Source of the DNA: an uncultured Candidatus Micrarchaeota archaeon
GTDB lineage: Archaea > Micrarchaeota > Micrarchaeia > Burarchaeales > Fermentimicrarchaeaceae
Direction: 5' to 3'
DNA: 64,000 nucleotides
Assembly (NCBI GenBank): GCA_903884505.1
Contig: CAISET010000030.1
Location: 29,701 to 93,700 of the forward strand
In this document: positions 9,896-56,968 of the stretch, one piece after another
How the letters are laid out: each line of letters begins with the position of its first letter
How positions within the stretch are numbered: position 1 is the first letter of the stretch
Made by a program: the position numbers and the translations under genes
Notes under the pieces: generated by a model
Databases searched by the model: none
What the model was told of the DNA's origin: nothing
The model's input: only the letters and a program-made list of their open reading frames with translations

Positions 9896-9940
9896 GGCAT
9901 TCCTTTCGGCAGCCGGCTATTAATTGGTTTGGGGGTAGAG

Positions 9941-10060
9941 GGAACCAGCGATGTTGCCGAGCAGGGCGAGGCAACAGGCAGTCGCCAACGAAGTTGGCGA
10001 TGCGCAACGTGAGTTGCGTAGTTGTCGCCGAAGGCGACTTGAAGCCATCGGTTGGTTCCT
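9941..10060 (+). repeat. Hairpin-module MITE-like element (copy C), with GAGGGAACCAGCGATG...CATCGGTTGGTTCCTC inverted termini
   Basis: ~100 bp near-identical to the reverse complement of 20975-21072. Contains the hairpins gtcgccaacgaagttggcgat, gcgcaacgtgagttgcg and tcgccgaaggcga. Confidence 0.75.
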
Positions 10061-10546
10061 CTAAATTCTGTCCCCGAAGAAGTCGATTAACAGGTGAAGG
10101 AGGTAGCCAAGGGCGGCGAAAACGCCCACGAGCAGCGAATCATCTACTGAGAGATTGAGAAGAAGAAGGAAGGCGAAAACCAAAATTCCCCAGAGGAAGG
10201 CCGCTGACCACGAATGCATGACGCCGCGGTGGCCCGGGATGGAGAGTTCGGCAAGGGCGAGCAGCAGGAAGGGAAGGAAGAGCGCAAGGAGCGGGGAGAT
10301 TGCCGAGAATGTGGAGTAGAAGAGGACTACAATCAGGATTCCGAGCAAAAACACGGCAAGCCGGAAAGCCCTCCTGGGTTTTGATTTCCTGCTGTCTATG
10401 TCAGGCAGGAGCGAGCTGATGATGAAGACGAGCGAGGCAACGGCAGCGGTGGGGACTGGAAAGCCATGCATCTCGGCGATGAACGCGGATATGAATACTG
10501 CGCCAAGTATTCCGCCGATGAAATGCTCCCGAAACCCGGTCTCCAC
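10061..10546 (-). CDS. Membrane-bound metal-dependent hydrolase-like protein (DUF457/YdjM family)
   Basis: 161 aa polytopic, with conserved His/Asp 'LLPDIDS' and 'HLLIDFFGD'. Confidence 0.5.
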   Translation of the reverse strand: METGFREHFIGGILGAVFISAFIAEMHGFPVPTAAVASLVFIISSLLPDIDSRKSKPRRAFRLAVFLLGILIVVLFYSTFSAISPLLALFLPFLLLALAELSIPGHRGVMHSWSAAFLWGILVFAFLLLLNLSVDDSLLVGVFAALGYLLHLLIDFFGDRI

Positions 10547-13539: not shown

Positions 13540-14346
13540 ATGTGCAAGCTCTGCGAGTACGCAAGGACGAACGCGGCCTTCCGCAGTGACATGGCCAAGG
13601 GCGCGCTCGCGGACCTGGACCGTTTCTTCAAGACGAAGGCCCATGCGCCCGAGAGCACATCCCTCTTCTCGAACATGCCGGGCTGGGCCGCGCTGAAATC
13701 CGACTTCGCGCTCTTCGAGCCCCTTGCGGCATTTCCCAACCCCCAGTCTTACTACCAGCCCCTATATATAAACGGAGAGAAGCTGCGGAACGACTGGCAG
13801 AGCGGCTGGACCCGCAGCATCGGCTTCCTCCCGAACGGCAACCTCCTGCTCTTCGCGAAGGCTGTCGAGCGCGGGAGGTTCGCAGCCGCGCTGGAGACCT
13901 TCCAGCACCTCTTCATCGTCGAATTCAGGCCGGATGAGCTGCAGGTGGAATACTCGCCCCCGCAGTTCACCCTCCGCGCGGAAGAGGTCACGAAGGAGGG
14001 CACAACTCTCATTAGCGGTGCCAAGGTTTCGCACACATTTTCGTTCGCCTTCTCCCACCTCGCTGCGGAGAAGAGCGCTATGCGCGCAGATGCGATCAAG
14101 CAGAGCGCGTTCCTCCGCCAGGTCCTGCGCAGGGGGAAAACCGAGGAGGAGGCTGCGAAGGACAGGGGCATCACGGACGCCCCGAAGTCTGACTTCGAGA
14201 AGTTCATCATCACAACCCTCCATTATGCCCCCCACCCGCTCCTAATGAGGGGGTTCAAGGAGATGGGCTACGAGAATCGGTTCGCCCTGCAGATGGACGT
14301 GCCGAAATTCCTTGATGAGCACTTCAAGAGGCTGAAAGGGGCTTAG
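13540..14346 (+). CDS. Hypothetical protein
   Basis: 268-aa ORF with coding-like composition and no recognised motifs. Confidence 0.4.
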   Translation: MCKLCEYARTNAAFRSDMAKGALADLDRFFKTKAHAPESTSLFSNMPGWAALKSDFALFEPLAAFPNPQSYYQPLYINGEKLRNDWQSGWTRSIGFLPNGNLLLFAKAVERGRFAAALETFQHLFIVEFRPDELQVEYSPPQFTLRAEEVTKEGTTLISGAKVSHTFSFAFSHLAAEKSAMRADAIKQSAFLRQVLRRGKTEEEAAKDRGITDAPKSDFEKFIITTLHYAPHPLLMRGFKEMGYENRFALQMDVPKFLDEHFKRLKGA

Positions 14347-14362
14347 AGCTTCTTCTCAACCG

Positions 14363-14600
14363 AGAAACCCCCGATGCGCAGGTTTGAGTCGCCTTCGGCG
14401 ACAGCTGCGCAACTTCTGTTGCGCATCGCTCTTCGTTGCCAACGCGATTTGCGCTCGTTGCGCAACAAGCATCGCCCTTTGGGGCGATGATGCCCCCTTG
14501 TGCTTTCGCACAAGGAGGGATGCGTCGCTGTTCGCCCGCTGGCGAACATGCGAACGAACTCGCTCGCCGCGCATATCGTCGGTTTCTACGTTACTTCCGG
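14363..14600. mobile_element. Hairpin-module MITE-like element (copy D) flanked by an 18-bp direct repeat that duplicates the AMMECR1 gene 3' end
   Basis: Direct repeat TYAGAGYTTCTTCTCAAC at 14343-14360 and 14601-14618. Start of D matches the reverse complement of the 3' part of copy C (agtcgccttcggcgaca...gcgcaact...gttgcgcatcgc). Confidence 0.7.
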
Positions 14601-15200
14601 TCAGAGTTTCTTCTCAACTACTTTTCCGCCAGGCGTTTCCTCAGAGAAGATTTGCGCCTGGAATTTCAAAACCCTTACCCCTGGCTTCAGCCACGAATCC
14701 GGCGGAAGCCCTGCCTTCCAGCAGGCCTGGCAAAGGAATTCCTCGCTCCCCCATTTCTGCTCGACAGGCACCTGGGGGAGAAGCAATCCGGATTGCCGTC
14801 CTGCCTCAATAATCAGCCCGTCCCTGCCAACCTTCACCTGCTCAACGAGCTTCTTCCTGTCCTTCGCCTCAATAGGCTCGGGCACGGTCAGCACCGAGAC
14901 CTCAATCATGATGTTTTTCAATTCTTCCGCAGTCACTTCCGGGAACCTCGGGTCGCCTGTCGCAGCCTCAACCGCCATCTCAACAACCGATTCAGCGAGC
15001 GGCCCCTGCGGCCTGGGATAGCCTATGCAGCCCTTCAGCTCGCGCTCAGGGTAGCTTTCAAGAGTCACGAACACGCCCCTCGGTTCCATCAGGTGCTTCG
15101 GCGCGCCGCCGGGTGGCAGCCTGCTTCCGTTCTCAAGGTACGCGGCTATCGCCTTTCTCGCGAGCCGCACGAGGAATTCGCCGTCCGAAATCTTGAGCAT
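14601..15200 (-). CDS. AMMECR1-domain protein
   Basis: 'GCIGY', 'PRGVFVTL' and 'LLLPQVP' motifs, 199 aa, typical archaeal AMMECR1. Confidence 0.8.
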   Translation of the reverse strand: MLKISDGEFLVRLARKAIAAYLENGSRLPPGGAPKHLMEPRGVFVTLESYPERELKGCIGYPRPQGPLAESVVEMAVEAATGDPRFPEVTAEELKNIMIEVSVLTVPEPIEAKDRKKLVEQVKVGRDGLIIEAGRQSGLLLPQVPVEQKWGSEEFLCQACWKAGLPPDSWLKPGVRVLKFQAQIFSEETPGGKVVEKKL

Positions 15201-15388
15201 GCTTAGGATGAAGTGCAGCCTGCTAAATAAACATTAGCTCGCATTTTACTCAACTACAAGACAATAGATTTAAATATATTTCGGCACAAAACGATTCCGC
15301 TGGTTCTTCGTCTTTTGAGGTGGTTGCACCACCTCAGCTGTGCGGGAACTGTGAAAAGACTGGTTCTGTAAATTCTGAGGTGGTGTGG

Positions 15389-18300
15389 ATGTCGACTTCC
15401 GTGAACTCCGCGAAGTGGTTCCTGCTGGCAGCGCTGCTGCTGGCAGGCATGGCATGCGCAGCGGGCAATTCGGACATACCCGAAAGCTACAACAGGTTCT
15501 GGGAAGGCCCGAACACGGGATTATTTCCATGCATAACCAACCTCCCGCTTCTCAACCTCGAGAAAACCGATGTGATGGATGCGCCGGCAATTGCACGGCT
15601 TGAACTTCCAGCGGGCTTCTCGGCGGTGAGGGAAAAGATGCAGAACGCAAGCGAAAAAATCAAGGCGGCCAAGGAAGGCTCCGTGCGTTTTCTCGGCATA
15701 TCGTTCTTAATCTTCGAGGTCGGAGAGAAAGTCCGCCTTTATGCAGATGGAAATCCCTACCCGATGTTGGCGAGCACGACATTTTGCGGGATGTCGGAAG
15801 AATCAGCGGATATATGGATAATAACCGAACCAGCCATGTACTGGAAGTGCCATGAGCTTTGGCAGGCGAACGAACAGGCCTGCAAGGCAATGGGCGATTC
15901 CCTTGACGCGCTGCAGGCGGCGGCATACGCCTCAAACGATGCGCGGGATGCAGCCGCTTCGCACCTTGAAACCCTCGGGAGGATGGGCGCCGATTACGGG
16001 AACTACTCCGGCTCCGCGAGAGGCGTTTATTCCGATTCAAAGGAAGCCCTGGAGGCTGACCCAATCATCGCTTTTAACGGCTCGCGGGAGATAACGCTGA
16101 GATACGATGACCAGGCGCCTAGGTTCGCTGCCGCATACGTTTCCGCATACGATGTGAAGACGGCATTCGAGAACGGCTCTGCCCAGTTCGAACGGCCGGA
16201 TTCCTACGCCGCGGCGATAGACCTTATGGCGGGGAGGGACGAGAACCTGGTGACCGGCTGGGCCGCAGTCTACTGGAACATCGATTCCGCAATCTCCGGC
16301 ATGGAAAGCGAATGGAACGGCAGTGAACGGGCGGCGGATGCGGAATATAGCGACGCGGATTCGGCCGTGGCCGCACTGGAGGAAGACGGTTACTCCAAGA
16401 TTACCGCAGACCTCATCTCGAATTTCAGCGAGGCAGCCACGGGCCCAATCCACGGCTCATTCAACGCGGCGCCTCCTGATGAGCGGGTGGCGAACGCAAG
16501 GGCGATGCTGCAGGGCGCAAATGCGAACATAACGGAAGCGCGCCGCCTTTCAAATGCGGAGTACGAAGAGGATTACCTCGCGCGGGCGATTGAAACTAGC
16601 CAGCGGGCGCACAGCTCCATCACGTCCGCGAAAAGCATGGCTGAGGAGGCGAAGGCGGAGGTTGAGGAGATAATCTCGGCAGCAGACGGGCTCTATGGCC
16701 TGAAGAGCAGCGAGGTGAGGAGCGCAATCGATTCCTTCAGCACAGAAACTCCCGGAAGCGCGAGGCTGAAGGCGAATGCCGAAACGGACTACCGAGAAGC
16801 GGTTGGGCTCGCGGCTACAGCGAGAGCCGGAACTTCCGGAAAGCACCTTGCCGGCCTTGCAGCTGCGCTTGGGAAGCTCGAATCCGCAAAGCTCTGGCTC
16901 AGCGATGAGAACGTGAGCATCGCAATCAGAAGGGATGCGGCCCGCGATGAACTGGCGAGGCTGAATGCAACGCTGAACAAGGCGGAGCATGACGGGATTG
17001 GCGTCACCTCCGAGCGGGACTGGCTCAACAATGCCATGCAGGGGCGTGACTCCGGGACTGCAGAAGATATGGAAAACTTCAAGGAGAAGGCGGAGCTGGC
17101 TGAGGAGGAGGTTTATGCGAAGGCAGCTGCGCAGTTCGGCTATCTTGACTGGCAGGTCTCCGCGCTTGACTCGACAATCTCCGCAATCCGCAGCTACCGC
17201 TCCATCCTGGGGAGCGCTGCCGAGCTCGAGGCGAAGTTCCGCGAATTCGACGAGCTGAAGAGGAATTACGCGAGTGGGGGGACGCTGGTTCCCGAGAAGG
17301 CGCTTGGCCATTATCTAGAGATAGCGGACAAGCTTGATGCGATTTCGCAGGAAGTGGAAAGCAACAAGGCGAAGATGATCCAGGAAATGATGGAGAAGAG
17401 CGCCAGATATGATGTGGCCTGGGAGGGCGAGCCAATCCTCGATGAAGAGATGTCGGCGCTGGTCTCGGTAAGGCTCGCGAACGAGCTTCCGTTCGGCACA
17501 AACAGCTCGCTCAGCGTTTCCATTCCCGGAGATTTCCCATCGGGCCTTTCCGTGGTCTCAAAAGATGCGGCAATCTTCTCCGTTGATGCGACCGGCACGA
17601 AGATTACGGCCTACTTTACCTCGGTTTCCGCAGGCAGCGCATATTCCATTTCGCTGAAGGGAAGCGGCGCGGAGCCGGCACGCAGCGTCGGAAGGCAGCA
17701 GGGGAACATAACCTCCCTCCACGAGCAGGAGCTTGTTGGCAGCGAAACGCTGGAGTTCGAGGCCCTGCGGGACCTTGACCGCCTGGCAATTCCTATGGAA
17801 ATCCCGGAAGGCACGGGCAGGCTTTCCGCGGAGATGGAGAACGGCAGGGTTGCGGAAGTGGTGAATTCCGATGGAATGGCACTTGTCTCCGCCGAAAGGG
17901 TGCGCAAGGGAAGAGGTAGCGTCACACTGGCATACCACATCCCGAACCCCTACTTAGTAACCGAGGGCGATGCGGAAGTGCGGAAAATAGACAACCTGAC
18001 CGCACGCATCACCTACAATGTTACGGTATCTTCGCGCGCCATGGACCTTTCGGACGTTCCAGTCCTCATATTCGTCCAGAACGTGAGCGGCGAGGAAGGC
18101 GTTTCCGTCCGCGGGCTGGATGGCGCATCGCTGCGTAACTTCGAGCAGCAGCCTTCGCAGGGAGGCGTGTCAGTCTCCTGGAGCATCAGGAGTCTTGGCA
18201 AGGGGGAGAGCGCAACCTACGAAGTCTCTTACGCGATAAGCGACCCCGGCGAATATGCCGAGTGGTTTTATTCGCAGGATGCTTTGCTCATCAATTCGCT

Positions 18301-19612
18301 TGATGAGGCCGGTCTCATTCCCGAGGCGCGCTTGGATGCTTTGAAGGGAAAGCTCGCGGACGCCCGCGGCCTGCTCGACAGCCAGAAATGTATGGAGGCG
18401 ATAGCGGAACTGAAGGGGCTCAGTGCGGACGCGCAGAAAGCAGCCAAAGACTCGCAAATTCAGGAGACTGCGAGGGCAGGTTACTACGATGAATTGGCGC
18501 AGTTTAAGAAGGAGAAGGCGGCGCTCGGGAATCTGCACGATGGGCTCTTCTCCGCGGGCTTGGACAGCGAGGCACGCAAAGTACAAACTGCGCTCGATGC
18601 TGCGGGCGAATCCGAGGATGAGGCGGCAGGGCTTGCGGACGATTTGAATTTTGGCTCCGCAAAGGCGAAAATTTCCGACGCGCGCAAGTCGCTCCATGTC
18701 GACCTTTCGGGCCCGCTCAACAACAGGGTGGAGTCGCTTTCCAAGGAGGCTGACCTGCTGAATAAGCGGGGCCATGCCCTTTCGCTCCTGGACAATGAGG
18801 CAAACCTCAGCGATTTCCAGGTGGAACTCGCGGGAATCCGCTCGTCCATCTCCGATGCGGACTATTCTTCGGCAGCAACCGGCATCGCGGGACTGAACCG
18901 CTCGCTTTCGGCAAAGGAAGGCGAAACGGACGCGGGCTTCGGCCGGCTTGTCCCGGAGTTCGAAGGCTATGCGCGCGAAGTCTCCGAATTGAAGATAGTA
19001 TTCGGGGCGAACTTGGTGGAATTCTCAAAATCTTCGAAAAACGAGACCATCCTGGGGCAGGCGAGAAACGATTTGGCCGAGCTCGGCAGGCTCGATTCCC
19101 TGCTCTCAAACTTCTCGAGCTCCCCGGAGAAGCCGAAGTTCCTAGAGGCGAACGCAGAGAAGCTCGCAGGGATAAGCGCGGAGATCGCCACGCTGAACGG
19201 CACGAGCGCCAGCCTCGCCCAGGCAACGCAGGCCTACGCCAAGCTCGCGAACAGCTCCTTCTCGGAGGCCAGCCTGAAGCTCGAGCAGGCGCGGAAAATA
19301 GTCCCTGCAAGCGGGCAATACGCGGATAGGCTGCAGAACCTCACCTCAATCCTCAGCGATGCCGAGTCCGCACTCACTGCAAACAATTACGCGGATGCGG
19401 CAGTCCTTTCGGAGAAGGTAAGGGCGGGGGCGGAGCTGCTGCTTTCCGCAGCCTCGCAGGTCGAGCAGAAGGAGGCGGGCGCCGGCTTTTCGTTCCAGCC
19501 GGTCTATCTCCTTCTTCCGCTCCTCTTCTTCCTCGCGCTCGGCTACGTCTTCCTGAAGAAGAGGCCCGAGAAACCGCAAGAGGCCAAGCCAATCCAGCGC
19601 CTAGAATTCTAA
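15389..19612 (+). CDS. Giant alpha-helical, coiled-coil-rich surface protein with signal peptide and C-terminal TM anchor
   Basis: Probable start 'MSTSVNSAKWFLLAALLLAGMACAAG'. C-terminus 'FSFQPVYLLLPLLFFLALGYVFLKKRPEK'. AT-rich TATA region upstream contains the palindrome gaggtggttgcaccacctcag. Confidence 0.65.
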   Translation: MSTSVNSAKWFLLAALLLAGMACAAGNSDIPESYNRFWEGPNTGLFPCITNLPLLNLEKTDVMDAPAIARLELPAGFSAVREKMQNASEKIKAAKEGSVRFLGISFLIFEVGEKVRLYADGNPYPMLASTTFCGMSEESADIWIITEPAMYWKCHELWQANEQACKAMGDSLDALQAAAYASNDARDAAASHLETLGRMGADYGNYSGSARGVYSDSKEALEADPIIAFNGSREITLRYDDQAPRFAAAYVSAYDVKTAFENGSAQFERPDSYAAAIDLMAGRDENLVTGWAAVYWNIDSAISGMESEWNGSERAADAEYSDADSAVAALEEDGYSKITADLISNFSEAATGPIHGSFNAAPPDERVANARAMLQGANANITEARRLSNAEYEEDYLARAIETSQRAHSSITSAKSMAEEAKAEVEEIISAADGLYGLKSSEVRSAIDSFSTETPGSARLKANAETDYREAVGLAATARAGTSGKHLAGLAAALGKLESAKLWLSDENVSIAIRRDAARDELARLNATLNKAEHDGIGVTSERDWLNNAMQGRDSGTAEDMENFKEKAELAEEEVYAKAAAQFGYLDWQVSALDSTISAIRSYRSILGSAAELEAKFREFDELKRNYASGGTLVPEKALGHYLEIADKLDAISQEVESNKAKMIQEMMEKSARYDVAWEGEPILDEEMSALVSVRLANELPFGTNSSLSVSIPGDFPSGLSVVSKDAAIFSVDATGTKITAYFTSVSAGSAYSISLKGSGAEPARSVGRQQGNITSLHEQELVGSETLEFEALRDLDRLAIPMEIPEGTGRLSAEMENGRVAEVVNSDGMALVSAERVRKGRGSVTLAYHIPNPYLVTEGDAEVRKIDNLTARITYNVTVSSRAMDLSDVPVLIFVQNVSGEEGVSVRGLDGASLRNFEQQPSQGGVSVSWSIRSLGKGESATYEVSYAISDPGEYAEWFYSQDALLINSLDEAGLIPEARLDALKGKLADARGLLDSQKCMEAIAELKGLSADAQKAAKDSQIQETARAGYYDELAQFKKEKAALGNLHDGLFSAGLDSEARKVQTALDAAGESEDEAAGLADDLNFGSAKAKISDARKSLHVDLSGPLNNRVESLSKEADLLNKRGHALSLLDNEANLSDFQVELAGIRSSISDADYSSAATGIAGLNRSLSAKEGETDAGFGRLVPEFEGYAREVSELKIVFGANLVEFSKSSKNETILGQARNDLAELGRLDSLLSNFSSSPEKPKFLEANAEKLAGISAEIATLNGTSASLAQATQAYAKLANSSFSEASLKLEQARKIVPASGQYADRLQNLTSILSDAESALTANNYADAAVLSEKVRAGAELLLSAASQVEQKEAGAGFSFQPVYLLLPLLFFLALGYVFLKKRPEKPQEAKPIQRLEF

Positions 19613-19662: not shown

Positions 19663-19832
19663 TCAGCAGGAAAACTCGCATAACCTTTCTTTGGTGTCGC
19701 CCTTCGGGACGAATTCGCCTTCGGGCGAAATGTCCGCGTCCGAGACGCGGACGCTCCTCGCCATCCAGCAGGGGCTCGTCGCTCGACATCCTAAGAAACG
19801 TTAACGAAAGAATTCAGCAGGAAAACTCGCAT
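19663..19832. mobile_element. Small hairpin-rich element (G) flanked by the 19-bp direct repeat TCAGCAGGAAAACTCGCAT, which duplicates the 3' end of the Cas4-like gene
   Basis: Direct repeats at 19663-19681 and 19814-19832; both encode 'CEFSC*' on the minus strand. Internal hairpins tcgccttcgggcga and gtccgcgtccgagacgcggac. Confidence 0.55.
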
Positions 19833-20494
19833 CCTTCCCTGAATTCACAGACAAGGCATTTCGCAGGCTCCCCGCACGCGAGCTCCCTCCGCTCGAATCT
19901 TCCCTCAAGTATTCCCGCAAACCTTTCAAGCCTGGAAGCCACAAACCCCGCGTCGAACGGCTTGGGCTCTCCTTTTCCAAGTGGATGCCTTCCCAGCAAA
20001 TCCCGCTCGATTATCCGGTAGTAGATATCGAAGCCGCGCAGGACTCCCTCCCCGAGTTCCCTTCCCCTCACCCTCATAATCCCGTTCGCCAGCCCGTTGC
20101 AGTAAGCGGACAGCTGGCATTCGTATTTCCCCGAGAACAGCCCGCCAGCCCTCGATGTGAATTTCTCATCGCAGACAACAACCGACCTTCCGAATTTCAG
20201 CAGCTTGTCGAGCCTTCCGGAGAAGGTGAGGCCGCCAAACGCAAATCTCACGCTCACCGCCTCATTCGGGAACTCGAGCGCGCTTCCCTCGTCCTGCAGC
20301 CGGCGCAGCAGTTCATCAACGCTGACAGCCTCGTATTCCTTCTCCGCATCCTCCTCCGCGGAGATGGCATGCTGCCTAGTGCCAATTGCCACGCAGGGGC
20401 GGAAGTGCGGCCTCCTTTCCTCAAGAAAATGATAGACGGGCTTGAGGCCGCAGAACTCCACGTCCGCGAATTTGGAGATAGGGACGGCTCTCAT
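19814..20494 (-). CDS. Cas4-like / RecB-family PD-(D/E)xK nuclease with Fe-S Cys cluster (DUF83-like), standalone
   Basis: N-terminal Cys ('FCGLKP'), 'GRLDKLL', 'VVVCDEKF', QxxxY motif ('QLSAY'), C-terminal 'CGEPAKCLVCEFREGC'. Confidence 0.65.
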   Translation of the reverse strand: MRAVPISKFADVEFCGLKPVYHFLEERRPHFRPCVAIGTRQHAISAEEDAEKEYEAVSVDELLRRLQDEGSALEFPNEAVSVRFAFGGLTFSGRLDKLLKFGRSVVVCDEKFTSRAGGLFSGKYECQLSAYCNGLANGIMRVRGRELGEGVLRGFDIYYRIIERDLLGRHPLGKGEPKPFDAGFVASRLERFAGILEGRFERRELACGEPAKCLVCEFREGCEFSC

Positions 20495-20497
20495 AGC

Positions 20498-20623
20498 CTA
20501 TCCGACCTTCAGCTCAAGCCGCGCCCCATTCCGCTGTATGACGGCTCCGGTGCTCACCCTTTCCAGCCTCGCAATCAGCTCCTCCAGCTGGTCGAACGTC
20601 AATTCGGTCACATCCATTTTCAT
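20498..20623 (-). CDS. Small 41-aa protein immediately upstream of the Cas4-like nuclease
   Basis: 'MKMDVTELTFDQLEELIARLERVSTGAVIQRNGARLELKVG'. RBS gaggtgagggca precedes the ATG. The longer ORF call runs through repeat element E and is unlikely. Confidence 0.4.
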   Translation of the reverse strand: MKMDVTELTFDQLEELIARLERVSTGAVIQRNGARLELKVG

Positions 20624-20627
20624 TGCC

Positions 20628-20780
20628 CTCACCTCGGAACCCCGGTTGGCGCTGCGCTCGCTTGCGCGACCACGCAACACCTTCGGTGTTGCGCAAACGC
20701 ACCTTCGCTTGCGCCATATCCAGTCGCCTCCGGCGACTGCCTGTTGCGCGTTGCGCAACATCCTCGGTTCCTGAACCTCC
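20628..20780. repeat. Hairpin-module MITE-like element (copy E)
   Basis: GGAACCCCGGTTGG...CCTCGGTTCC termini. Modules gcgcaacaccttcggtgttgcgc and gtcgcctccggcgac. Ends ggttcctgaacctcc, as copy F does. Confidence 0.7.
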
Positions 20781-20829
20781 GTGAGCTGGTGCTGGACTGC
20801 TTTTAAAGAAGGGGAAGCGCACGTGGTTT

Positions 20830-21080
20830 CCAGTAAGAACCAATGGTTGGCATCCTCGCTGGCGCTCGTTGCCATATCCGGTCGCCTCCGGCGATTGATT
20901 TCGCCTTGCGGCGAAAGCTGTCGCTTTGCCGCGGGCAAAGCGCCATTGAGTCGCCTTCCGGCGACAGCTCAAATCGCCTGCGGCGATAACTGCGCAACTC
21001 ACGTTGCGCATCGCCAACTTCGTTGGCGACTGCCCGTTGCCTCGCGCTGCTCGGCAACATCCTTGGTTCCTTAACCTCCA
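20830..21080. repeat. Hairpin-module MITE-like element (copy F, longest; about seven tandem hairpin modules)
   Basis: GAACCAATGGTTGG...CCTTGGTTCCTTAACCTCC termini. 20975-21072 is the reverse complement of copy C. Modules gtcgccttccggcgac, gctttgccgcgggcaaagc, tgcgcaactcacgttgcgca and tcgccaacttcgttggcga. Confidence 0.75.
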
Positions 21081-21087
21081 CGCAAAA

Positions 21088-21597
21088 TCAGGGCTCTGCG
21101 CTGAACTCGTCCGCCTCGGTCAAATCAACGACTTCCCCAGCGCTCTGCAAGCCTTTCCCAACATAGACGAGCGAGGATGAGAACACGATGCGGTAAACGC
21201 CGTTGAACTCCTCAATCTCGCTCTTCATCATCCTCAAATATTTGTGTAGGGTCTGCGGGGAAATCTTAGTCTCCTTCTGTATCTCGTTGAAGGTCTTGGC
21301 GCGGGACTTGAGGCAGTTCCTCACCATCTGCTTCATGTCCTCGTCAGAAACAATATACTCCTCGGTCGCGAACTGCAGCTTCTCCTGCACGGACTCTATC
21401 CTCTTCGTTATCTCGTCCCTGCTCAGCACATCGCAACTTTTCAGCTCGCGCAGCTCCCTGAGGATGTGGTGCGCGCTCTCCCTCTGCGCGCCATCGAGCC
21501 GCTTAACATGCGCGGAAAGCTCCTCCAGCTTCCCGGAGACGCCGTCATTCCCGTTATTTTCCTTTCTCGCGCCGAACAGAATGTCCAATAAACCCAT
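21088..21597 (-). CDS. Hypothetical protein with C-terminal winged-helix-like region
   Basis: 169 aa; 'KTFNEIQKETKISPQTLHKYLRMMK' HTH-like segment. Confidence 0.4.
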   Translation of the reverse strand: MGLLDILFGARKENNGNDGVSGKLEELSAHVKRLDGAQRESAHHILRELRELKSCDVLSRDEITKRIESVQEKLQFATEEYIVSDEDMKQMVRNCLKSRAKTFNEIQKETKISPQTLHKYLRMMKSEIEEFNGVYRIVFSSSLVYVGKGLQSAGEVVDLTEADEFSAEP

Positions 21598-21861
21598 AAT
21601 AAAGTCGCCTAGGGCGCATATTAGATGCCGAAAATATTTAAAGAGTGCGGTAATTCGGTTTCGCAGCCTGTCAGCCGGCGGCTTCCCCGAAGCCCCTTCG
21701 CAAAAAGCAGGCGCTCGCTTCCGCTATTCGTCCGAAGTGGCGCCATCTCACTTTAAAAAGGGTTCAAACAAAACCACTGTCCCCAAAACATCAAGTATCT
21801 GCGCCTGGTCCGCGCGGACGCCGGAAAATTCTTGGGGAAAAGGGAAGCAATCGGAGGGGTG

Positions 21862-26319: not shown

Positions 26320-26459
26320 CGCGAGGTTTATAAATTCCCACTTCCCCAATACAGTCCTGCTCATTTTACTGTCGTAGATGAGCTTGATGAACCCCCAACG
26401 GGGGATTCGCAACATGCGAGCATGTTGCGGGTTTGCACGGGGGGCGAGGGTGATTTCAA
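26320..26459 (+). promoter_or_regulatory. Promoter (TTTATAAATT) plus structured 5' leader of the L7Ae operon, with a tandem GATGA...GATGA (C-box/K-turn-like) motif and palindromes
   Basis: TATA at 26327-26336. gtaGATGAgcttGATGAacc at 26374-26393. Hairpins cccccaacggggg and gcaacatgcgagcatgttgc. Confidence 0.4.
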
Positions 26460-26978
26460 ATGGCAAAGGGTTACGTGGAATTCGAGACTTCGAAGGAGCT
26501 CCAGGAGAAGGCCTATCAGGCCATAGAGATGGCCAAGGACACTGGAAGGCTCAGGAAGGGGATGAACGAGGCGACTAAGGCCGTTGAGAAGACCGGCTGC
26601 GCACTAGTCGTAATCGCCGAGGACATTGACCCGCCTGAGGTCGTGATGCACCTGCCAGGGCTCTGCAGGGAGAAGAAGATTCCCTTCATGTATGTTGCTG
26701 GGAAGAAGGAGCTCGGCAAGAGCGCGGGCCTAACTGTTCCCTGTGCTGCTATCGCGATCGAGAAGCCGGGGAACGCTCAGGACCTTGTGAACGAGATAGT
26801 CGCGGGCCTGGGCGGAAAGGGCAAGAAGGCCGAAAAGAAGGAGGAGGCCCCGGTTGAGGCGCCTGCGGCAGAGGCTCCAGCGGAGAAGCCCAAGAAAGAA
26901 AAGAAGCCCCGCGTGAAGAAGGAGAAGCCCGCTGAGGCGAAGCCAGCAGAGATTAAGCCTGAGGAGGCAAAGGCCTAA
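26460..26978 (+). CDS. rpl7ae: Ribosomal protein L7Ae with an unusual C-terminal K/E/A/P-rich ~50-aa tail
   Basis: '[51 protein letters not shown]', followed by '[44 protein letters not shown]'. Confidence 0.85.
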
Positions 26979-30088: not shown

Positions 30089-31033
30089 ATGAAGTATGTC
30101 CTCGTCCTGCTAACTCTTGCCGTTTTCCTGCTGCCTGCCTTCGCGATCATGCCGAGCCCAACGCCGGTTGATTCGGACCACGATGGCATTCCTGACAGCA
30201 CGGACAATTGCGTGCTCGTCCCCAACCCCACACAGGCGGACAGGGACCTCGACGGGATAGGCGATGCCTGCGACACGTGCATACGCGTCTCCAATCCCGG
30301 CCAGGAGGACCGCGACGGCGACGGCGTTGGCGACGTTTGCGACAATTGCGTGGATATCTCCAACGCAAACCAGAATGACGGCGATGGCGATAACATTGGT
30401 GATTTGTGCGACAACTGCATTCTCGTTCCCAACCCGGACCAGCTGGACAGCAACGGAAACGGGATAGGCGATGCCTGCGAGGCCGCGGCGCCAACCCCAA
30501 CGCCTACGCCAACTGCAATCCCGACACCTACTCCCACTGCAACGCCAACCCCAACACCAACCCCAGTTGCCTGCGGCAACTACTGCGAGTACGGCGTCCT
30601 TTATAGCGGCGGCTACTACGATGCTGGACAGATGAAATGCGTTTATCAGAACAGGTATGGCTGCCTCACCATCTGCAATGCGAACGGTACGGCTTGCGCG
30701 ACAGCCACATCAACTCCGGCACCAACGCCCACTCCTACGTCCGCGCCAAGCCCGACTTCCACTTCGGAGCCGACTGCAACGCCAACCCCGACATCTGCTC
30801 CAACTCAGACGCCGGCGCCAGAGCCAACTGCAACTCCAACTCCGGTTCCAACGCCTACTCCGGCACCCACGCCCGTTCCAACTCCTACGCCAACCCCCAC
30901 ACCATACAGTGCTACGCCAACGGCAACGCCAGCCGCATCCCCCACCCCGCAGCCCAGCGCATGCCCGCTATTCTTCGTGCTGCCGCTCTTCGGGAGTGCG
31001 GCTGCGCTGTTTGCGCTGAGAAGAATGGAATAG
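30089..31033 (+). CDS. Secreted Ca-binding thrombospondin type-3-repeat protein with PT-rich linkers and hydrophobic C-terminus
   Basis: Repeated 'D.D.DG..D..DNC' units (DSDHDGIPDSTDNC; DRDLDGIGDACDTC; DRDGDGVGDVCDNC; DGDGDNIGDLCDNC; DSNGNGIGDACE). C-terminus 'CPLFFVLPLFGSAAALFALRRME'. Confidence 0.7.
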   Translation: MKYVLVLLTLAVFLLPAFAIMPSPTPVDSDHDGIPDSTDNCVLVPNPTQADRDLDGIGDACDTCIRVSNPGQEDRDGDGVGDVCDNCVDISNANQNDGDGDNIGDLCDNCILVPNPDQLDSNGNGIGDACEAAAPTPTPTPTAIPTPTPTATPTPTPTPVACGNYCEYGVLYSGGYYDAGQMKCVYQNRYGCLTICNANGTACATATSTPAPTPTPTSAPSPTSTSEPTATPTPTSAPTQTPAPEPTATPTPVPTPTPAPTPVPTPTPTPTPYSATPTATPAASPTPQPSACPLFFVLPLFGSAAALFALRRME

Positions 31034-56877: not shown

Positions 56878-56968
56878 GATTGTGACACACTGCCACGCTT
56901 GGACGCGTGGCTGGTGTGCTGCTGCCAGTAAGCGTGGCAGTGTGCGTCCGGCGGTGATTTCTGTGGTT
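56878..56968 (+). repeat. Upstream copy of the duplicated rtcB 5' region (GGATTGTGA...CGTCCGGCGGTGATTTCTGTGGTTGAACTGAA), interrupted by a 60-bp perfect-arm palindrome
   Basis: Matches 58466-58510. Palindrome cacactgccacgctt...aagcgtggcagtgtg at 56888-56947. Confidence 0.6.

Follow-up and report, generated by a model that had tools for sequence, protein, structure and literature searches.

The subject of this work is element D, a 240-nt non-coding hairpin array at positions 14361-14600 of a 64,000-nt stretch of DNA (hereafter the window) from an uncultured Candidatus Micrarchaeota archaeon (GenBank assembly GCA_903884505.1, contig CAISET010000030.1, positions 29,701-93,700). We conclude that it is probably a copy of a non-autonomous, non-coding mobile element that inserted with an 18-bp target duplication at the junction between the AMMECR1 gene and a convergent gene coding for a 268-aa protein. 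The locus has the order repeat, element, repeat, with a boundary that can be placed to the exact nucleotide; two relatives have the same site empty; a second copy of D is found elsewhere; and a second element, E, is inserted in the same manner at an unrelated gene end. These observations support the interpretation of an earlier first-pass annotation that D is an insertion with a target duplication. Its claim of mobility likewise draws support from the empty sites, the near-identical second copy and E.

The repeat-flanked element at the AMMECR1 junction

The two copies of the repeat, at 14343-14360 (TTAGAGCTTCTTCTCAAC) and 14601-14618 (TCAGAGTTTCTTCTCAAC), are identical at 16 of 18 bases and directly border the array. 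Our analysis confirms that this repeat is real: agreement of at least 16 of 18 bases at a fixed offset has a chance probability of 2e-8, and the pattern, with up to two mismatches allowed, occurs at just these two sites in the 64-kb window, against an expected count of 0.03 from 100 dinucleotide shuffles, none of which (0/100) contained two matches. Read on the minus strand, both copies encode VEKKL followed by a stop, and the positions and the reading given for them in the first-pass annotation are borne out. The gene-proximal copy (14601-14618, minus strand) comprises the last five codons and the TGA stop of the target gene, AMMECR1 (14601-15200, minus strand), whose intact 199-aa product matches PF01871 (E = 4e-57 over residues 11-185) and ends, as had been read from the sequence, in GGKVVEKKL. 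The distal copy (14343-14360, minus strand) contains the TAG stop (14344-14346, plus strand) of the convergent gene (13540-14346, plus strand), whose 268-aa product has no known function.

A 68-aa open reading frame (ORF) at 14343-14549 on the minus strand has no Pfam match and ends in GGFSVEKKL, and had been described as a relic. The ending stands, but the ORF is a relic solely in its last five codons and stop, and the GG shared by the two ORF ends stems from the end of the element (GGGGGTTTCTCG), not from the gene. With the sequence of the relatives as the reference, in which AMMECR1 ends in AAGAAGCTCT(A/G)A, both mismatches between the 18-bp copies fall in the one attached to AMMECR1 (AAG to AAA and TAA to TGA) and are silent for its product; the distal copy retains the TTAG that provides the stop of the convergent gene. 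The earlier proposal that the duplication regenerates the AMMECR1 end is correct as far as it goes and incomplete, since the convergent gene also keeps its own stop codon.

In the sense of AMMECR1, the junction reads as the TGA stop, about 10 unpaired bases, a closing stem and the hairpin array, with D (minus strand) running from its End1 (14600) to its End2 (14361) in the same sense as the gene. The unpaired extension at End1 (CCGGAAGTAA; 14591-14600, minus strand; about 10 nt) was delimited by folding, lies right behind the AMMECR1 TGA and corresponds, in a comparison of ends, to GGAGGTTCA in other members of the family. The closing stem, or terminal inverted repeat, has its End1 arm at 14571-14590 (minus strand; inverted-repeat search and fold) and its End2 arm at 14361-14380 (minus strand; inverted-repeat search, fold and the boundary seen in contig L013, described below). 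The inverted repeat is imperfect, the segments 14358-14375 (AACCGAGAAACCCCCGAT) and 14575-14592 (ATCGTCGGTTTCTACGTT) being 78% complementary. The array contains four perfect 8-bp stems with 4-nt loops and further stems besides, and the element as single-stranded DNA folds at -77 kcal/mol (z = -8.4 relative to shuffles, none of which was as stable). The ORFs crossing D have no family match, and Rfam gave no match at the gathering score anywhere in the window and none at a permissive threshold, the best sub-threshold score in 14300-14660 being 17 bits against a 70-bit cut-off. Neither D nor E holds its flanking repeat in inverted form above chance, and hence the arrangement is a plain duplication.

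The boundary of the element at End2 is fixed by the same-species contig L013, which carries an identical AMMECR1 together with a copy of the element in which 1 of the 240 nt is different. Immediately beyond ...GGGGGTTTCTCG (window position 14361) this contig continues into DNA absent from the window, with the divergence falling exactly there, and the flank past the element includes the 3' end of a further gene, with 5 nt between its stop and the element. A protein search with the 42-aa peptide flanking this second copy returned no match. The different flank beyond the element end indicates that the 18-bp repeat is target DNA and not a part of the element. The comparison of the two contigs further implies that the end of D is flush with the repeat and that a near-identical copy of D resides at another locus with a different flank. 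Both inferences on D hold whichever L013 is, a chimeric contig or one rearranged through the element.

The empty-site comparison proposed in the first-pass annotation was carried out at the 3' end of AMMECR1, and uninterrupted sites were found in contigs L019 and L029. Beyond the species itself, the nearest relatives of AMMECR1 are 84%, 79% and 75% identical. In L019 (75%), which is syntenic with the window, the end of the gene, ...GAGAAGAAGCTCTGA, leads without interruption into the ortholog of the 268-aa gene, with an overlap of 68 nt between the two. In L029/L017 (84%), the gene ends in GTTGAAAAGAAGCTCTAA and a different gene starts 7 nt on. When 14361-14618 is removed, the window aligns colinearly with both L019 and L029. 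The uninterrupted state in these relatives means that the duplication is not a conserved feature of AMMECR1 3' regions, and it supports the earlier claim of an insertion at the last codons of the gene with a duplication that keeps a functional end. A scan of a genome collection with AMMECR1 yielded just relatives of at most 53% identity, which are unusable as empty sites. There are no hairpin clusters in 8.1 kb of L029, as opposed to D, E and two further arrays, C1 and C2, in the syntenic segment of the window; we count this in favor of the elements having probably been gained recently in the lineage of the window, with L029 lacking them.

Element E and the wider family of hairpin arrays

Element E (19682-19813, minus strand) is 132 nt long and has an architecture like that of D, in which an unpaired End1 of 11 nt is combined with a closing stem and with hairpins in the interior; both are short non-coding elements with terminal inverted repeats. 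It follows a gene (19814-20494, minus strand) for a nuclease of the PD-(D/E)XK type (PF12705, 5.7e-6). The gene-proximal 19-bp copy (19814-19832, minus strand) consists of the last five codons and the stop of the nuclease gene (CEFSC, TGA), and the distal copy (TCAGCAGGAAAACTCGCAT; 19663-19681, minus strand) is now non-coding. This repeat is perfect (19/19), for which the chance probability at a fixed offset is 4e-12. End1 starts on the base behind the stop codon, and E has the same orientation as the gene, as is the case for D. The ortholog of the nuclease gene in L029 ends in ...TCCTGCTAG, after which other DNA follows and E is absent. A scan of the window for short-range direct repeats outside coding repeats returned just those of D and E and a repeat around the array A1.

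These data bear on the reading of D as the remnant of a site-specific integration, according to which the element would have brought the 18-bp repeat with it as an attachment core and rebuilt the 3' end of the target gene. A rebuilt gene 3' end is the classic look of attL/attR sites at the ends of tRNA or protein genes, and the repeat does rebuild such an end. Yet the repeats of D and E are unrelated, each being the end of its own target gene, the second D copy has a different flank right past the element end, and D is 240 nt long and non-coding. This reading is largely refuted, and we give it hardly any credence.

The 64-kb window, to which our copy count applies, contains seven members of the family: A1, A2, B, C1, C2, D and E. 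A1 (1735-1803) and A2 (1869-1990) lie on the plus strand within 1735-1990. B (9930-10062, plus strand; 133 nt) overlaps with its End2 the TAG stop of a gene at 10061-10546 (minus strand). C1 (20635-20780, minus strand; 146 nt) separates the TATA-like box of a 41-aa gene from its ribosome-binding site. C2 (20833-21079, minus strand; 247 nt; End1 GGAGGTTAAGGAACC) begins 8 nt past the stop of a gene at 21088-21597 (minus strand). A1, A2, C1 and C2 share the ends GGAGGTTNAGGAACC... and ...CCATTGGTTCT; a 43-54-nt module near End2 of D is common to B and C2 (82-88% identity); and the end motif GT(T)AACG is common to D, E and two metagenomic copies, L026 and L028. A1 sits between two perfect 65-nt repeats (86 nt when the shared start of the element is counted), which could be either a very long target duplication or a tandem duplication. 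We observe that A1 and A2 are in tandem, with an identical 86-nt stretch (1669-1754 and 1803-1888) that precedes and includes each start, and that the 65-nt repeats contain the TATA-like TTTAAAAA.

Beyond the window, a pattern made from the shared module retrieved nine Joint Genome Institute (JGI) metagenome contigs, in which the copies are located between operon genes and between convergent genes. Those at 4919-5026 of L022 (as oriented) and 2043-2150 of L023 lie inside operons and are co-oriented with the genes. One operon copy is situated between the genes for ATP synthase B and D, ending in ...GGGTTCTG with the D start codon following at once, and another stands immediately upstream of purH. 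At the ends of the operon copies, GGAGGT and GGGGGT resemble Shine-Dalgarno motifs and would be paired in the closing stem. The copies in L026 (about 135 nt, after a TAA stop) and L028 (3966-4049) have the end motif of E (TTTTCCGTTAACGC...) and fill the whole spacer between convergent genes, the convergent frame reaching a TAA within the last bases of the element (GGGTTAC). In L026 the convergent gene encodes the Lon protease and uses the TAA in the element end, and L028 ends before its gene could be confirmed. Scans of viral collections gave nothing in one and, in the other, two chance matches in AT-rich coding DNA of phages. Direct repeats of 16-19 nt in L024 were rejected as lying inside coding repeats and not flanking elements, and possible short duplications in L020 and L022 (8/10 and 10/13) were indistinguishable from chance.

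The arms of the closing stems are AGAAAC/GTTTCT in D and TTTCTT/AAGAAA in E, positions whose homology is uncertain; this fits the conservation of structure rather than sequence. Of 11 copies folded as RNA, 7 are more stable, with a margin above 1 kcal/mol, on the strand running from End1 to End2 than on its complement, and 2 are less stable. Such an asymmetry raises the question of whether D is a structured 3' region native to the locus and conserved there, for instance a terminator or an RNA-stabilizing array, which was joined by an older, unrelated local tandem duplication. The copies are indeed mostly co-oriented with adjacent genes and more stable in that sense, and several lie exactly between convergent genes, and on these grounds a role at the transcript level after insertion is plausible. 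As an account of the locus itself, we regard this as very improbable: the relatives have neither the structure nor the repeat, repeat and element meet with nucleotide precision, and the same pattern recurs at the unrelated gene next to E.

Related arrays are also found within coding sequence. At 5105-7100 of contig L025 (and also in L021) there are four paralogous pilin-like genes with starts resembling class-III signal peptides, an assignment made in L025 by motif only, with no match from Pfam. One of the L025 paralogs is uninterrupted (MRKGQSAMEYLMTYGW...), and the other three have in-frame hairpin inserts of 30, 72 and 108 nt within the signal peptide. The inserts share homology with modules from the interior of B, C2 and D and are flanked by a duplicated GQ(S/A)A(I/M)E, the duplicated segments being 18-19 nt long with nucleotide matches of 14/18, 14/18 and 10/18. 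The suggestion in the first-pass annotation that other copies might have duplications of 16-19 bp therefore held for E (19 bp) and for these inserts (about 18-19 nt), and failed for A1, A2, B, C1 and C2. A shared target motif, CTNCTRA|GC, was suggested by D and E, found no support in the pilin genes, and was dropped as unproven. Within C2, the segment 20934-20956 (GGGCAAAGCGCCATTGAGTCGCC) would encode GQSAIE, the motif of the pilin signal peptide, and is identical at 21 of 23 positions to the left duplicate plus the start of the insert in an L025 pilin gene. An ancestor of C2 may have carried target DNA along.

The repeated nature of these arrays also demands that their assembly be considered. 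The short-read contigs L014-L016 end inside or just before D, as expected of a repeated sequence, L013 is a chimera or a rearrangement, and in the same-species contig L033 (1-1100, compared with window 20554-21857) the segments around C1 and C2 appear in another order and orientation, which reflects a genuine inversion between elements or else a chimera made in assembly. These features might be taken to mean that the duplication at D is mimicked by a repeat-induced chimera. Against this, an identical AMMECR1 protein is present on 11 contigs, those with a gene table showing a 254-nt gap to the 268-aa gene. Because the same 254-nt spacing is repeated in five other same-species contigs from independent assemblies, the D locus is not an assembly artefact. 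At E, the 201-nt spacing occurs in 7/7 assemblies that reach far enough, and three further same-species assemblies have E with both 19-bp repeats exactly. The probability that we assign to an artefact is negligible.

Some other features of the window were noted in passing. The L7Ae gene (26460-26978) has a 5' leader (26380-26459) with UGAUGA followed by two hairpins, which we take to be a possible K-turn for L7Ae autoregulation. A GC-rich set of nested inverted repeats at 56880-56960, in a style unlike that of the hairpin family, lies in an 810-nt stretch without an ORF call; no tRNA or Rfam match covers the region, and the tRNA search found no tRNA genes in the window. The gene at 15320-19612 encodes a 1430-aa protein with a signal-like N-terminus and a C-terminal membrane anchor. 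That at 30089-31033 has repeated Asn/Pro-rich units, which account for a 22-nt direct repeat at 30252 and 30459.

Candidate mechanisms of insertion

The above observations can be brought together in a model in which the family of D comprises hairpin arrays closed by imperfect terminal inverted repeats. The data show that a copy of a repeated hairpin element entered where AMMECR1 and the convergent 268-aa gene met or overlapped, together with a duplication of 18 bp, and that a second gene was struck in like manner, with 19 bp. The copy attached to AMMECR1 keeps the five last codons and the stop, the other copy keeps the TAG of the convergent gene, and both genes thereby survive, now 254 nt apart. 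The duplication itself would arise from target cuts staggered by about 18-19 bp, with the gaps filled by repair. An integrase or transposase supplied in trans would presumably set the length of the duplication by its geometry. A fixed geometry is suggested by the recurrence of the same length in independent events, and action in trans by the lack of a transposase, an integrase or Cas1 in the window ORFs tested and of any gene bracketed by terminal repeats. What is recognized in the element would be its folded structure and not a conserved sequence. The copies that persist would be those whose duplication spares gene ends. D, E and the copies in L026 and L028 begin 0-2 nt from a stop codon, and a rough count of tolerated positions puts the probability of this abutment by selection alone at about 1/15 for D and 1/60 for E.

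Several points weigh against an enzymatic insertion with a target duplication. A duplication of 18-19 bp went undetected at A1, A2, B, C1, C2, L026 and L028, and C1 and C2 have clean empty sites in L029 (190-270) with no duplication. The alignment of D with E reveals little real homology, such that their kinship is founded on architecture and the End1 motif GT(T)AACG, and their mobilization by one enzyme is an assumption. The 18-19-bp length is defined by only two events in the genome. No transposase, integrase or Cas1 was detected among the roughly 34 larger window ORFs tested, and there are no long-range terminal repeats in the window that bracket a gene. Finally, the distinction between gain and loss at the empty sites rests on parsimony over three lineages.

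The main rival is template switching during replication, which would operate without a transposase: a stalled polymerase would jump to a hairpin array elsewhere through microhomology in the GC-rich stems, copy the array, and return about 18 nt behind its point of departure, leaving both an insert and a duplication. In its favor, the pilin-like genes of L025 show an arrangement more complex than that at D and E: toward its 3' end, each insert repeats in inverted form the first 10-13 nt of the duplicate that lies downstream. The resulting direct-inverted-direct order is typical of fold-back or template-switch events, and the sizes of the paralogous inserts (30, 72 and 108 nt) imply that arrays grow or shrink in place. 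Likewise, flanking repeats that span from none (C1, C2) to 65 nt (A1) and a window without a transposase among the tested ORFs sit well with such a process. On the other hand, three independent events yielded 18, 19 and about 18-19 nt, a fixed length that points to the geometry of an enzyme. Moreover, D and E hold no inverted repeat copy above chance, share an asymmetric orientation and both abut a stop codon, and the junctions of D show no clear microhomology by eye, no formal test having been made. On balance, we consider template switching rather unlikely as the origin of D, and insertion of a mobile element with a target duplication remains the reading that we prefer.

As to what might carry out such an insertion, we tentatively raise the possibility, which we do not regard as the likelier outcome, that the hairpin arrays are substrates of an undescribed archaeal integration system. 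This might be an integrase of the ruler type, whether casposase-like or not, or a mechanism coupled to replication, which recognizes folded DNA and not a terminal sequence, duplicates a fixed 18-19 bp, and places the element right behind a stop codon. If this were true, such a system would spare the ends of genes in a genome that has hardly any spacer DNA, and the same system would explain the in-frame hairpin arrays in the signal peptides of pilins.

Irrespective of the enzyme, the insertions documented here with empty sites add a mobile-element family to the record of a poorly studied archaeal lineage, the Micrarchaeota. In so compact a genome, a long duplication lets an element land on a convergent, overlapping gene junction with each gene keeping its stop. 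The combination of a fixed long duplication and abutment to the stop codon also offers a handle for finding the enzyme responsible.

Comparison with known systems

The family can be compared with several described systems. The bacterial REP/BIME/REPIN elements (mobilized by RAYT transposases) and the palindrome-associated elements derived from IS200/IS605 resemble it in being GC-rich hairpin arrays located after gene ends and between convergent genes, and the extragenic GC-rich array is evident here from counts, clusters and folds. The strand asymmetry that the family shares with REP-type elements suggests recognition as a folded single strand. REP/BIME/REPIN and IS200/IS605-derived elements insert 3' of a short conserved motif in the target and are not known to duplicate target DNA. 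In contrast, D and E carry duplications of 18-19 bp, and the window shows no gene for RAYT or TnpA. IS200/IS605 elements are reported from more than 65% of Micrarchaeota genomes (PMC13343696).

The features of D and E also recall those of the MITEs, or miniature inverted-repeat transposable elements, of bacteria and archaea: both are small (130-250 nt), non-coding and multi-copy, have imperfect terminal inverted repeats and a flanking target duplication, and are intergenic, with the enzyme encoded elsewhere, presumably so for D and E. Insertion with target duplication is attested at D (18 bp) and E (19 bp) by empty sites in relatives, and multiple related copies by the seven in 64 kb plus the second near-identical D implied by L013. 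The target duplications of MITEs are 2-10 bp long (PMC11602168), and those of D and E are about twice the upper limit of this range. The earlier description of the D duplication as unusually long is thus upheld. Surveys that assume the 2-10-bp range could miss such elements. Further differences from MITEs are seen in the interior of the family, which is built of modular hairpins with stems of about 8 bp and loops of 3-4 nt, the design being kept as the sequences vary, and in the unpaired 9-15-nt extension at one end; no parent insertion sequence is known.

Duplications of greater length are known from two other sources. Casposons leave duplications of 14 bp (M. mazei) or 35 bp (another casposon) and enter genes in their 3'-distal part, the protein-coding aEF-2 gene among them (PMC4779613); the casposase is reported to tolerate varied DNA substrates (PMC7786333). 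Casposons share with D and E the archaeal setting and a long duplication at a gene 3' end, which in casposons is set by the geometry of the integrase. At 18-19 bp, the duplications of D and E likewise reach at least 14 bp with a fixed length and lie at the 3'-distal ends of their genes, which is a resemblance only. Casposons, however, are large and encode Cas1 and a polymerase, as against the non-coding 240 nt of D and 132 nt of E in a window without Cas1, and their targets are sequence-specific and reused, whereas D and E struck two unrelated gene ends. A non-autonomous casposon derivative is a possible origin of D and E, and casposase-like integrases are the only archaeal precedent that we retrieved for a duplication of such length at gene 3' ends. 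The second source is the IS1202 family of DDE transposons, which likewise have unusually long duplications of fixed length: 15-17 bp in the ISTde1 subgroup and 27-28 bp in the IS1202 subgroup, with some copies lacking duplications, a state that the authors ascribe to recombination between copies (bioRxiv 10.1101/2022.12.17.520857). The ISTde1 subgroup differs from D and E in being bacterial and about 1.5 kb long, in its duplication of 15-17 versus 18-19 bp, and in terminal repeats that begin with 5'-TGT, which neither D (CGAG.../...CCGG) nor E (AACC.../...GAAT) does. For an integrative element with an attachment-site duplication, the repeat would belong to the element and be the same at every copy, in contrast to the unrelated repeats of D and E. 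Our literature searches found no description of hairpin elements of this kind. Taken together, the family resembles MITEs or REP arrays and is set apart from them by its 18-19-bp duplication, its abutment to stop codons, and a conservation of structure over sequence.

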